Shown here piece by piece: positions 19,515 to 22,610 of a DNA stretch of 60,533 nucleotides. Each line of letters opens with the position of its first letter. Position 1 is the stretch's first letter. This DNA comes from a virus (lineage: Duplodnaviria; Caudoviricetes): positions 1 through 60,533 of the IMG/VR virus record IMGVR_UViG_3300021959_009735; one strand, 5' to 3'. The notes beneath the pieces were generated by a model. It was not told the DNA's origin. It made no database searches and saw only the letters and a list, made by a program, of their open reading frames with translations. Position numbers and translations under genes: made by a program.

Positions 19515-20450
19515 TTAAAAAGAAGGATTGCAGAGAGGGTTATCTTTAAATACGCAGAATCTACAATTATTCTTTGATGGCTTTTTCTGATATACCTTAT
19601 CGACGAATTGACCGGTACTATCAAAGCCTTCCTTAACAAACTCACCTATCTTTTTAAGAGCTCTTCCTCTATTAATCTTTCCAGCAGAAGGTTTGAATTC
19701 CTGTACTCTTCTTCCCATAGCCGGAAAGTCTGGATCTTTAGGAACTTTTCTTTTTACGATAAAGTACTCTACATCGATCTTATCTATGTCTGTGTCGAAT
19801 TGTTTGGCAAAGTACTCTTTGTATAAAAGCACCTGAGAGATCTTATCAGTATCCTTCTTGGCATAGTCTTTCCAGCCAGAAGTAGATGTTTTGATGTCAA
19901 CAATCCTGAATCGATCTGTATTCTTATTGTAGAATACGAGATCAATAAAGCCTTTAAAGTATAGATTCTCTTGAATTGGATAAAGGATTGGAGTCTCTAT
20001 TCCGGCTAGATAAGTTCCTTTGATCGGAAAATAAACGTTTCTCTTCTTCTTAAGATAGTCTAGAATCTGAATCCCATCTTCCAGGAAGGAGTCCAGTTCC
20101 TTTCCATCAGAGAAATGCTCATGGCCGTTTCTATACTTTTCTTTCTTATAGGTCTTGATCATACGCTCTCTTAAAAGCGCATGCAGATCTATTTCATCAG
20201 CCGCTTTAGCCGATTCAGAGTACATGACTTCCAGCCATTCCTGAACGGTCTCGTGTAGAGCTGTTCCGAAAGTTGTATAGATGGAAGGCTGGTATGGTGA
20301 TAAATTACGTACATAGGTTAAGTACCATTTGTGTGGACATTGGCTATACATATAGAACTGACTAAAAGAAATGTTCTTTTCATCTTCTTTTAACCGTCTA
20401 CCTTTAGCTTCCTGTATTAGTTTAACCTTCGGTGGGACCTTTTTCGGCAT
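19515..20450 (-). CDS. PD-(D/E)XK nuclease (RecB/Cas4-like)
   Basis: SFSQ..CPHKW, FGTALHE, GFIDLV, VDIKTS, QVLLY, CRFC..C. Confidence 0.88.
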   Translation of the reverse strand: MPKKVPPKVKLIQEAKGRRLKEDEKNISFSQFYMYSQCPHKWYLTYVRNLSPYQPSIYTTFGTALHETVQEWLEVMYSESAKAADEIDLHALLRERMIKTYKKEKYRNGHEHFSDGKELDSFLEDGIQILDYLKKKRNVYFPIKGTYLAGIETPILYPIQENLYFKGFIDLVFYNKNTDRFRIVDIKTSTSGWKDYAKKDTDKISQVLLYKEYFAKQFDTDIDKIDVEYFIVKRKVPKDPDFPAMGRRVQEFKPSAGKINRGRALKKIGEFVKEGFDSTGQFVDKVYQKKPSKNNCRFCVFKDNPLCNPSF

Positions 20451-20625
20451 ATTCTTCTTTTAACTTCTCGATATAGGCTGTAGCATCCATAAGCTCTTCC
20501 TGTAGGTGCTGTAGCCATTCTAGGATTGATAAGTCATCCCTTTCGAGAGTAACTCCATATTTTTCTTTTCCCTTAGCAGCTCGACTTCGAATCTGCTCTA
20601 TAACCTGTTCTTCAATTCTGCTCAT
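20422..20625 (-). CDS. small conserved phage protein (MazG-like helical motif)
   Basis: R..KGKEKYGVTLERDDL..WLQHLQEELMDA..Y. Confidence 0.65.
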   Translation of the reverse strand: MSRIEEQVIEQIRSRAAKGKEKYGVTLERDDLSILEWLQHLQEELMDATAYIEKLKEEYAEKGPTEG

Positions 20626-20864
20626 TATAGGTAACGTTTTCCTTTATTGTATTCTTTTTTCAATATCTTACCTCTTCTACCGTCTGATAGTAAGACATGA
20701 TACCATGATGGCGTCTTCTGTAAGATACGGACAATGTGAGGAGGTTCCAACTTTTCAGGTTCTACACTTACTTCCGGTTCAGTCTTTTCAGGTTCTATAC
20801 TTACCGGTTCTTCCTCAACAGGCTCTTGAACTTCTTCCCGAGGCGTTTCAACCTCGGGTTGGAC
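20625..20864 (-). CDS. -1 frame C-terminal extension (79 aa) of the membrane protein, reached by frameshift
   Basis: Open frame VQPEVETPREEVQEPVEEEPVSIEPEK...KRYL* begins right after A AAA AAG; its TAA overlaps the next ATG (TAATG). Confidence 0.75.
   Translation of the reverse strand, partial: VQPEVETPREEVQEPVEEEPVSIEPEKTEPEVSVEPEKLEPPHIVRILQKTPSWYHVLLSDGRRGKILKKEYNKGKRYL
20751..20804. repeat. 21-nt direct repeat, 33-nt period
   Basis: cttttcaggttcta(c/t)acttac at 20751 and 20784; encodes VS(I/V)EPEK twice in the -1 frame. Confidence 0.85.
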
Positions 20865-21784
20865 TTTTTTACGGCATCATCGACCTCCTCTTCCTCCTCG
20901 TAAGGAAGCTCTTTCTCCTTTGGAACCTCTAATGTTCCATCTTCATGTTCTAACTCTCCGTAAAGAGTTTCTTTTGGCCTAAGCTGTGCAAAAGCAAAGT
21001 TAGCCGCAATAACCAGAGAAATAGCTAAGGGGTCAAATACAAAGATAATAACAAGAAGTAGAATATTTACAATCCTACTCATTTCCCATCCTGTAACTTC
21101 ACTAATATACTTAAGCGGACCAAGCTCGGCAGCAATCTCTGAGTTTGATTCTAAGTCTAAGATTTGGATTTGAATCGATTGAAGTGAGTCTGCTGCGGTA
21201 GTTCTCTTAGCCTGTACCTCTCTTCTATTGGCTTCTTCAGAAGCAATCCGCTCTTGGGCAAGTCTAAGTTCGGCTGTTGATACGGTGTTTCTTAGCCCGG
21301 TAGCCGAGGTCGTATCTCTAACCTGAATCTGAGTAGCTCTAGCTTTAGAGAGCTCATTAATGGTAGTAGAGATACGTTCTAACTCCTGATCATAACGTGA
21401 GACATCTTCGGAAAAGAATGCTTCTTTCTGCTCTAGAAACTCTATACGCTTTTCTGATACCGTGTATGCGCTGTAGGTCTCTTGATAGGCTGCTGATAAG
21501 AATCCGTAGATCCCCATCGATGTAATTAAGACGAGTACAAAGGCTGCTACCGTTAGGTAAGTTCGTAGAATTTTATTTAACTTGTCCCAATACTGGTACA
21601 GAAGAGATGCTATTACGAGCTTAGATACTTCCAGCGAACCTGCCATGACAATGACCTGTAGCTGTGCTCCGGCAAAAAGCTTACTCAAACCGTAGACACT
21701 ATAGAATGCTGCTGATCCTGATACGGATAAAGCAGATAGAGCTATAATAATAGGTAGAGTTACCTTTTTTATCTTATCGTACAT
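20801..21784 (-). CDS. multi-pass membrane protein with long coiled coil (0-frame form 327 aa)
   Basis: 3 N-terminal TMs, coiled coil, C-terminal TM with VFDPLAI; start reassigned to MYDK. Confidence 0.8.
   Translation of the reverse strand: MYDKIKKVTLPIIIALSALSVSGSAAFYSVYGLSKLFAGAQLQVIVMAGSLEVSKLVIASLLYQYWDKLNKILRTYLTVAAFVLVLITSMGIYGFLSAAYQETYSAYTVSEKRIEFLEQKEAFFSEDVSRYDQELERISTTINELSKARATQIQVRDTTSATGLRNTVSTAELRLAQERIASEEANRREVQAKRTTAADSLQSIQIQILDLESNSEIAAELGPLKYISEVTGWEMSRIVNILLLVIIFVFDPLAISLVIAANFAFAQLRPKETLYGELEHEDGTLEVPKEKELPYEEEEEVDDAVKKSNPRLKRLGKKFKSLLRKNR
20837..20889 (-). promoter_or_regulatory. candidate programmed -1 ribosomal frameshift signal
   Basis: AGGAGGT, 12 nt, A AAA AAG (20870-20864), 5 nt, hairpin CCCGAGG/CCTCGGG. 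Confidence 0.7.
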
Positions 21785-21794
21785 CTTATCAATA

Positions 21795-21840
21795 TAAGAA
21801 AGAAAACCCCTAGAATCCACTATAAAGCTTCATCTAGGGG
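21795..21840 (-). terminator. hairpin + T-tract after the holin-like gene, overlapping a promoter-like TATATT
   Basis: CCCCTAGA...TCTAGGGG followed by TTTTCTTTCTT; large loop. Confidence 0.45.
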
Positions 21841-21847
21841 CTTTTTC

Positions 21848-22102
21848 TTAGGCTGCGTCTGTTTTTTCTGCTTCTTCAACAGGCTTTTTGGCGATAGAGA
21901 ATTTCTCTACGGCTGAGAATCCTAAGCCTGCTGCTACGAGGTAGAGCATACCATTATAAACGAACTCTTCTAAAGGAAGTGCAAAGAAGAGGTTAGCAAC
22001 AAATGCTACAAAGCATAGAGCTGCTGCAACTAGCGTAACTGTTCTTTTGGAGGATGCCTGTCCGTGGACGTCGGAAAGCATTTTATTGAGCCATTTTTTC
22101 AT
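21848..22102 (-). CDS. holin-like 2-TM protein
   Basis: SSKR motif, two TMs, charged C-tail; directly after the amidase. Confidence 0.65.
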   Translation of the reverse strand: MKKWLNKMLSDVHGQASSKRTVTLVAAALCFVAFVANLFFALPLEEFVYNGMLYLVAAGLGFSAVEKFSIAKKPVEEAEKTDAA

Positions 22103-22118: not shown

Positions 22119-22610
22119 TTATTCGCTAAGTGCTTTTACAAAAGCATCCCAGTCGAAGGCTGCTCCTGGGTCTGTTTTGCCTTTTCCTGCGCCTCTAACA
22201 TCATCTCCAGATACATCCGAGTGTCTTACTACTCTTTCTACAGGAATGTTGTACTCCTTCATCCACCATTTGCATACCTCTACAGCACAGTCGAACTGGG
22301 CTTGGGTGTATGTGCCAGGTGTCTCGATTGCTTTGGAGAATGTTCCGAAGTCATGTTCTCCGGGGACTAGTAGTTCGAATCCTAAGTAATGGCCGTTGAG
22401 CAATTCTAATCCCATATGAGCACTCTTTCCGGCATGAGCTGCCTTCTGAGTTGATTCAAGCATCTTGTCATACTTTCCATCTGGGGTGATAAATCCATGA
22501 ACGGAAAGCTTAACGGATTTGAGAAAATCTTTGGCCGGCTTAGGACCTTCTGGCAGCTTTAGAAACTCTGCCATAGAGTGAACGATTATACCTTTCGGTG
22601 TAAATGCCAT
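22119..22610 (-). CDS. N-acetylmuramoyl-L-alanine amidase (endolysin, Amidase_2)
   Basis: IIVHS, SVHGFI, AAHAG, GFEL, VVRHSDV, KTDPG. Confidence 0.9.
   Translation of the reverse strand: MAFTPKGIIVHSMAEFLKLPEGPKPAKDFLKSVKLSVHGFITPDGKYDKMLESTQKAAHAGKSAHMGLELLNGHYLGFELLVPGEHDFGTFSKAIETPGTYTQAQFDCAVEVCKWWMKEYNIPVERVVRHSDVSGDDVRGAGKGKTDPGAAFDWDAFVKALSE

Follow-up and report, generated by a model that had tools for sequence, protein, structure and literature searches.

Does a reading frame that closes early in a phage gene mark a damaged gene, a gene divided into two, or a site at which ribosomes change frame? The question is raised by IMG/VR record IMGVR_UViG_3300021959_009735 (Duplodnaviria; Caudoviricetes), a metagenome-assembled viral contig analysed here over its whole length of 60,533 nucleotides (nt; hereafter the window). 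On its minus strand, a membrane-protein gene ends in the 0 frame after 327 amino acids (aa), and the -1 frame stays open for 79 codons (20864-20628), giving a potential product of 386 aa that fills the 175-nt gap before the next gene (Table 1). We consider a lineage-specific programmed -1 ribosomal frameshift at the heptamer A_AAA_AAG to be the best explanation, and hold this view with moderate confidence. A reading of the DNA alone (the sequence-only reading) had drawn attention to the site, and its description of the letters was accurate. The gene text GAG GAG GTC GAT GAT GCC GTA AAA AAG TCC AAC CCG AGG is found exactly on the minus strand; a Shine-Dalgarno (SD)-like AGGAGGT precedes the in-frame A AAA AAG by 12 nt; the 0 frame ends with the 20 basic residues SNPRLKRLGKKFKSLLRKNR and a TAA (20803-20801); and the added 79 aa run into a TAATG overlap. 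The in-frame repeat with a 33-nt period was also recovered, as two 29-nt copies of 86% identity (20743-20771 and 20776-20804), an array that Tandem Repeats Finder reports with a 15-nt period.

The frame break is conserved within one clade

A search over 5.8 billion proteins returned 23 best clusters (drawn from JGI, ENA and Logan) at 90-100% identity, all 326-339 aa long and all carrying [V/A]KKSNPRLKRLGKK followed by a tail of identical length, 20 residues, after a KKSNPR junction. No continuous cluster was found by this search in the 90-100% range; the next matches reach at most 72% identity, and the seven next-ranked relatives are continuous proteins of 369-580 aa. Clade DNA comprised the window and five metagenome contigs reaching the site (L036, L037, L038, L039 and L042), which are 85-94% identical to the window at the nucleotide level, L037-L039 being nearly identical to one another. 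All five contigs keep the heptamer, the hairpin downstream of it, AGGAGGT, the -1-frame TGA, the 0-frame TAA, the open -1 frame and the TAATG end. An independent DNA run (X11) yielded a contig that spans 20300-21744 with 0 differences and 0 gaps relative to the window and contains the same A6 run; the stretch is present in 20 runs of 14 studies, nine of these runs possibly representing the source sample. Relatives differ from the window by substitutions on both sides of the break. The frame break is real and is conserved, together with the slip site and the hairpin, across this clade of uncultured marine phages.

These data bear directly on a homopolymer sequencing or assembly error in the window contig, an explanation suggested by the position of the break within an A6 run of a metagenome assembly whose completeness CheckV estimates at 37%. 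Its probability is negligible, and it was rejected: the same break occurs in 23/23 clusters from three sources, in 5/5 related contigs and in one independent run, with different substitutions at the flanks. The sequence-only reading would have settled for a simple indel if homologues turned out continuous and free of a conserved slip site; this describes the distant homologues, whereas the close relatives keep the site. Exact-pattern scans of viral contigs for the slip region gave no match, which carries little weight given that the collection may not contain close relatives. Among RNA-library contigs, those of X16 and X17 leave the slip site uncovered. In X15, two contigs meet at 20874-20879, beside a polymorphic GCC/GCT site at 20873, and the run reads A6 in the X15 contig that includes it.

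Two further observations concern individual sequences. L042 has an extra 2-nt deletion (GAAGAAG to GA--AAG) at a non-slippery place about 360 nt upstream of the slip site (alignment columns 569-570), which points either to a faulty assembly or to a decaying gene in that lineage. The 328-aa protein P0039 matches the frameshifting clade almost exactly in its middle and differs at the N-terminus and tail; from its sequence, it looks like a recombinant between lineages.

The -1 frame and the C-terminus of continuous homologues

The closest cultured relatives of the window are the Flavobacterium phages vB_FspM_immuto (hereafter immuto). Their homologue is a single 381-aa open reading frame (ORF) ending in ...SPTIVKILKMNPNRLKAEMSDGTTQWIAKKDFGNNENKITYL, which aligns by eye with the -1 tail of the window, ...PPHIVRILQKTPSWYHVLLSDGRRGKILKKEYNKGKRYL, with a C-terminal match ...SPTIVKILKMNPNRLKAEMSDGTTQWIAKKDF...KITYL. 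Two continuous metagenomic homologues at 62-72% identity, P0026 and P0076, are closer to the window than immuto. The C-terminus of P0026, ...KKVVRILQKTPSKRRVKFDDGSTGWIDKGDEDKIIYM, which includes ...VVRILQKTPSKRRVKFDDGSTGWIDKGDEDKIIYM, matches the -1 tail, and that of P0076, ...VKILQKGPSSHRVLYSDGEERKVKKDDLTIKYL, is similar to it. A tblastn search of the 80-aa -1 tail against L001-L033 gave no match at E <= 1, and homology to the distant relatives is visible only by eye and through the closer homologues. By these alignments, the C-terminal domain that forms part of the single frame in continuous homologues is encoded in the window by the -1 frame. Because every complete relative outside the clade is continuous, the 386-aa product represents the ancestral architecture and the frame break a derived state. 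The complete relatives at 33 viral and 64 metagenome loci showed no other recoding site in the family.

In most continuous homologues, highly variable acidic linkers are followed by a conserved terminal ...[DN]xTITY[FLMN]; the -1 product of the window ends in ...GKRYL. P0025 (580 aa) has an internal tandem duplication of a segment that begins with the second arm of the helical hairpin, spans the last membrane helix and reaches into the first part of the linker.

Family homologues begin at the position equivalent to ATG 21784. In the window, the 12 codons before this ATG (21785-21820) open with GTG, and several clade members have an ATG there (MDSRG...). The clade may use this longer start, unlike the rest of the family, which would give products of 339 and 398 aa.

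Selection on the two frames and constraint on the RNA

Ratios of nonsynonymous to synonymous change (pN/pS) were summed over six sequence pairs with a pairwise synonymous divergence of about 0.39. Over the 39-codon C-terminal domain, the -1 frame gives a pN/pS of 0.12 and the two remaining frames give 0.73 and 5.39; the N-terminal gene body, read in the 0 frame, gives 0.09-0.11. Variable columns past the 0-frame stop number 11, 5 and 23 at -1-frame codon positions 1, 2 and 3. Because of this low ratio and this distribution of variable columns, the C-terminal domain is, as judged from the substitution pattern, translated in the -1 frame and functional. The linker that precedes it has a pN/pS of 0.45 in the -1 frame after the 0-frame stop and is under relaxed constraint, as are linkers throughout the family. 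Where the frames overlap, the values are 0.30 in the 0 frame and 0.78 in the -1 frame; these counts are small and hint at constraint on the basic 0-frame tail too. The basic character of that tail is largely the out-of-frame reading of GAA/GAG-rich acidic codons.

Within this variable linker, a 92-nt block (-45 to +46 relative to GTA) has only 2 variable columns, GCC/GCT at -1 and TCC/TCG at +11, against 4 in the 15 nt before it and 7 in the 12 nt after it. Third codon positions are variable at 1/25 sites in the core and at 150/365 elsewhere (Fisher p = 7e-5); over all positions, the figures are 2/74 in the core and 41/173 in the flanking linker (p = 1.5e-5). The dual-coded overlap itself is uneven, with 1/36 variable positions in the half that holds the heptamer and hairpin and 7/36 in the other half (two-sided p = 0.055). 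A nearly invariant block inside a hypervariable linker is the signature expected of a signal acting at the RNA level.

The candidate recoding signal

The A-rich window contains nine in-phase A_AAA_AAG heptamers in 77 long ORFs. Only at the present site does the -1 frame stay open for long (79 codons; 1-21 at the others), and this site also has the strongest downstream hairpin (-15.1 kcal/mol, against 0 to -8.7). It is the single slippery heptamer within the 75-nt interval in which both frames are open. The 7-bp hairpin CCCGAGG/CCTCGGG that the sequence-only reading had placed 5 nt downstream is present and is extended to 8 bp by RNAfold, which returns CCCGAGG(U)/(G)CCUCGGG as the minimum-free-energy structure in both 61-nt and 141-nt contexts.

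The SD-like element is a different matter. SD motifs upstream of the window's ORFs, which have A-rich upstream regions, occur at background rate (4-mers at 14/76 against 12% expected, 5-mers at 5/76 against 3.2% expected). The phage host is probably a member of the Bacteroidia, which the A-rich, SD-poor upstream regions fit but do not prove. According to Naeem et al. (PMC10798248), Bacteroidia ribosomes do not normally pair with SD sequences; at the frameshift site of prfB, too, those of F. johnsoniae normally make no use of such pairing, and about 7% shifting takes place in its absence. Because the phage genes lack SD motifs and the host is probably one of the Bacteroidia, AGGAGGT is probably inert here. 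Of the dnaX-style signal that had been proposed, the SD part is doubtful.

A possible pseudoknot was also noted (20815-20858, minus strand), in which the loop sequence UUGAA would pair with a UUCAA lying six nt (AAGAAG) after the stem. The region is invariant, and the conserved nucleotide block ends exactly after UUCAA, the putative pairing partner.

A model of the frameshift and its alternatives

In the mechanism that we propose, ribosomes on the membrane-protein gene would reach GTA AAA AAG and be stalled by the 8-bp stem-loop 5 nt downstream, and a fraction of them would slip by one base in the -1 direction at the two lysine codons. The remaining ribosomes would terminate 20 codons later, yielding a 327-aa protein with a short basic tail; those that slip would read 79 more codons, yielding a 386-aa protein that ends in ...RYL and contains the acidic linker and the small, beta-rich domain at its C-terminus. 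The site probably arose through the loss of one A from an A7 run (GTA AAA AAA GTC) in a continuous ancestor; if the host belongs to the Bacteroidia, AGGAGGT upstream of the site may have no effect. We infer the slip on the ribosome, the production of both forms and the importance of both; of the two-isoform proposal put forward earlier, the conserved break, the conserved signal and the selected -1 frame are borne out, stimulation by an SD sequence is doubtful, and the fixed ratio of the two forms and the possible role in lysis that the sequence-only reading suggested are hypothetical.

Several points weigh against this reading. The phase of the heptamer and the direction of the shift are not independent evidence, because loss of one A automatically yields an in-phase A_AAA_AAG that needs a -1 shift. 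The hairpin energy is unremarkable (z = -1.28 for 61 nt and -1.07 for 141 nt; 18/200 shuffles fold equally well or better), and the hairpin is 100% identical in 6/6 clade DNA sequences, so that it offers no covariation. Those six sequences amount to only about four independent lineages, the window included. SD motifs occur at background rate, and Bacteroidia ribosomes are normally SD-blind (PMC10798248). In the part of the -1 linker that follows the 0-frame stop, variable columns are spread over the codon positions without bias (5/3/6), and in the overlap the 0 frame has a lower pN/pS than the -1 frame. All complete relatives outside the clade (33 viral and 64 metagenome loci) are continuous, natural 28-residue tails in L059, L060, L065, L067 and L068 suggest that a truncated protein may suffice, and L042 carries its second frame break in the helical-hairpin part of the same gene. 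None of the RNA-library contigs of X15, X16 and X17 spans the A run with at least 31 nt on both sides.

A first alternative is a split gene, in which a one-base deletion became fixed in the clade and the C-terminal domain is initiated separately at a TTG before EPPHIV (41 aa, 20625-20750). This TTG is the only canonical start in the -1 ORF and is kept in 6/6 sequences; hosts that do not use SD pairing would need no ribosome-binding motif there, and strong selection on the domain (0.12) combined with relaxed selection on the -1 linker (0.45-0.78, with no codon-position bias) also speaks for it. It leaves the near-invariance of the 92-nt heptamer and hairpin block unexplained, however. Wherever the domain occurs among the continuous homologues examined, it is moreover joined to the membrane body, and it forms a separate gene at none of the examined loci. 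The -1 frame is also open from the slip site in 6/6 sequences, a weak argument, with about 1.2 stop-creating changes expected under neutrality by a rough hand estimate. We regard a split gene as rather unlikely. Transcriptional slippage, by which RNA polymerase would add an A at the A6 run in a fraction of mRNAs, has in its favour a homopolymer placed precisely where the frames meet; at the protein level its outcome, a 386-aa product, would be indistinguishable from that of a ribosomal shift, and it could be read into the two X15 RNA-library contigs that end 4-9 nt from the A run. Efficient transcriptional slippage in bacteria generally needs runs of about nine or more A or T, however, and the run here is only A6 in 6/6 sequences; the conserved downstream hairpin would have no role in it, and the X15 contig break coincides with the GCC/GCT polymorphism at 20873, the X15 contig with the run being A6. 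We judge it improbable. Least credible of the three is a tolerated mutation, with the truncated protein as the sole functional product and the -1 ORF as an undecayed relic. The members with natural 28-residue tails and the second break in L042 would suit it, but the domain has the same pN/pS in the -1 frame as the gene body across a synonymous divergence of about 0.39, and 6/6 sequences preserve the -1 ORF together with its stop and the TAATG overlap, which makes this explanation very unlikely. Of these explanations, a programmed ribosomal frameshift is the best supported.

A more far-reaching possibility builds on the frameshift: both isoforms may be functional and mutually opposed, forming a holin/antiholin-like or lysis-timing switch that is set by recoding and not by dual starts. 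The frameshift would then set the ratio of the short form, whose cationic amphipathic tail would lie along the membrane, to the long form with its acidic linker, beta domain and the conserved aromatic C-terminus of the family. Hints in this direction come from the overlap pN/pS (0.30 against 0.78), the conservation of the tail, its hydrophobic moment and the lysis-gene neighbours. Most substitutions by which the 23 clusters differ in the 0-frame tail are conservative (F/L/I, R/K, S/N), and its hydrophobic moment is matched or exceeded by 432 of 10,000 shuffles. A tentative extension of the same idea is that, in Bacteroidia hosts, the SD-like block acts otherwise at the RNA level or reveals SD pairing in elongation. 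Opposed isoforms are on the whole a rather improbable proposition.

Protein family, gene neighbourhood and host

Searches of Pfam, PHROGs and Pfam under relaxed settings gave no family assignment for the membrane protein, and the ESM Atlas returned only unnamed viral clusters. The family is large, with at least 8000 matches at E <= 1e-20 in the protein search, and virus-only. The continuous homologue P0026 was modelled with AlphaFold2 from a 72-sequence alignment (mean predicted local distance difference test score 62.5). The model has helices at residues 2-34, 41-64 and 71-158, with four hydrophobic helices overall; helices 170-213 and 235-268 form a long helical hairpin with 71-158, followed by a disordered region (268-331) and a three-stranded beta unit (335-359). 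Compared with the PDB by Foldseek, this model has no match at E <= 0.001; the alignments obtained were generic ones to long helices, with target-side TM-scores (template modelling) of at most 0.46. Depth in RNA-library run X17 rises to about 1026 at 21004-21067, where 37 nt of a highly abundant but unrelated contig match the conserved last membrane helix; the X17 sample may therefore be rich in a related phage gene.

In the window, 75 of the 76 long ORFs lie on the minus strand, and one tRNA-Leu gene is found at 74-148. The neighbours of the frameshift gene are an amidase gene, small membrane ORFs, a DUF3310-like gene, a PD-(D/E)XK nuclease gene and glycosyltransferase-like ORFs. The earlier description of the upstream neighbours as amidase and holin-like holds for the amidase (Amidase_2); for the 84-aa membrane ORF, a single match was obtained, to a PHROG family named 'membrane protein' (E 0.0097), and 'holin-like' is no more than a suggestion. 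The order of family homologue, DUF3310 gene, PD-(D/E)XK nuclease, short hypothetical gene and glycosyltransferase is common to the window and immuto, in which the counterpart of the 67-aa downstream gene at the same position is annotated as DUF3310 and a chitinase-type enzyme and a holin lie a few genes upstream of the family gene.

Neighbours were surveyed at 12 loci chosen as distinct lineages, and in 6 of them (L003, L006, L029, L036, L057 and L086) the family gene is beside or near endolysin or holin genes. It lies close downstream of the endolysin gene in L003, L006, L029 and L036, with a Pfam holin gene (L003, L029) or a small unassigned ORF (L006, L036) in between; in L057 and L086, an amidase gene follows it directly. 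In L001, L005, L012, L015, L018 and L021, it adjoins or closely follows ribonucleotide reductase genes.

Table 1. Features of the frameshift locus and its neighbours; positions are those of the window
Feature	Position	Strand	Remarks
Slippery heptamer A AAA AAG, in phase (GTA AAA AAG, 20864-20872)	20864..20870	-	A6 run at 20865-20870; first A is codon position 3
SD-like AGGAGGT	20883..20889	-	12 nt upstream of the heptamer; within Glu codons (GAG GAG GTC); identical in 6/6
TGA in the -1 frame	20877..20879	-	ends the -1 frame 3 codons ahead of the slip site and bounds the 75-nt shift interval on its upstream side; kept in 6/6
Stem-loop CCCGAGGU-UGAAAC-GCCUCGGG	20837..20858	-	8 bp, 6-nt loop; 5 nt (TCCAA) downstream of the heptamer
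0-frame ORF of the membrane protein	20801..21784	-	327 aa from ATG 21784; 339 aa from GTG 21820
0-frame tail, 20 residues, SNPRLKRLGKKFKSLLRKNR	20804..20863	-	basic, weakly amphipathic; K or R at 9/20
0-frame stop TAA	20801..20803	-	TAG two codons later; kept in 6/6 clade DNA sequences
-1-frame linker, 40 codons, VQPEVETPREEV...EPEKLE	20745..20864	-	acidic and proline-rich; open in 6/6; contains the repeat spaced 33 nt
-1-frame C-terminal domain, 39 codons, PPHIVRILQKTPSWYHVLLSDGRRGKILKKEYNKGKRYL	20628..20744	-	homologous, by alignment, to the in-frame C-terminus of continuous homologues
-1-frame stop TAA	20625..20627	-	one-base overlap with the ATG of the next gene (TAATG); kept in 6/6
N-acetylmuramoyl-L-alanine amidase (endolysin) gene	22119..22610	-	Amidase_2 match, E 5e-15
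84-aa two-helix membrane ORF	21848..22102	-	flanked by the amidase and frameshift genes; candidate holin on grounds of position only
Downstream gene, 67 aa	20422..20625	-	matches only PHROGs of unknown function

Comparison with known recoding systems

Apart from those in tail-chaperone and capsid genes, phages have few -1 frameshift sites that are well supported, and the present one lies in an abundant virus-only membrane-protein family that recurs beside lysis genes of marine phages. Since a single clade appears to have converted a continuous gene to a recoded one, the ancestral and derived states can be compared directly. If the hosts are Bacteroidia, the site also tests -1 frameshifting on ribosomes that ignore SD sequences, and the slipperiness of A_AAA_AAG there. 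There is a practical side as well: gene callers truncate the gene and leave a 175-nt 'intergenic' gap, so that the C-terminal domain is missing from protein catalogues. A full-text literature search, which covered main texts, found no paper describing the family or the site.

Tail assembly chaperones are the standard case of phage frameshifting according to parts of the PRFect paper (PMC10885494), which also mention T7 and phage A2 capsids, lysins, methyltransferases, polymerases, transposases and Cro among frameshifting phage genes. No membrane protein of the present family is named in the portions of that source consulted, and the word 'membrane' occurs 0 times in its main text. The window gene lacks the location typical of the tail chaperones G and GT, between the tail tube and tape measure genes.

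The nearest counterpart of the signal is that of E. coli dnaX, whose heptamer A AAA AAG is identical to that of the window and whose stem-loop and upstream SD-like element are also alike. In dnaX, the stem-loop lies a few nt downstream and the SD-like element about 10-13 nt upstream of the heptamer, and the shifted ribosome stops almost at once, so that the shift gives the shorter product. In the window, by contrast, the predicted shift gives the longer product; the gene is not dnaX but belongs to a different family, without a Pfam or PHROG match, and the case is known here from sequence alone. In outcome, it is closer to orfA/orfAB of IS3 elements (IS911, IS150) and to lambda G/GT, with a C-terminally extended fusion. 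In both of these, a -1 shift at a heptamer near the end of the upstream ORF produces the fusion in a set proportion to the short form. The window gene is neither a transposase nor a tail-module gene but encodes a membrane protein beside an amidase gene, and its putative shift is confined to one clade of its family, unlike G/GT frameshifting, which to our knowledge is near-universal among tailed phages. A functional analogy may be drawn with the lambda S105/S107 holin and antiholin, in which one membrane-protein gene of a lysis cassette yields two isoforms that differ in terminal charge. There, the two forms arise from two start codons and differ at the N-terminus; in the window gene, the difference would be C-terminal and produced by putative frameshifting, and a holin or antiholin role of the family is hypothetical.

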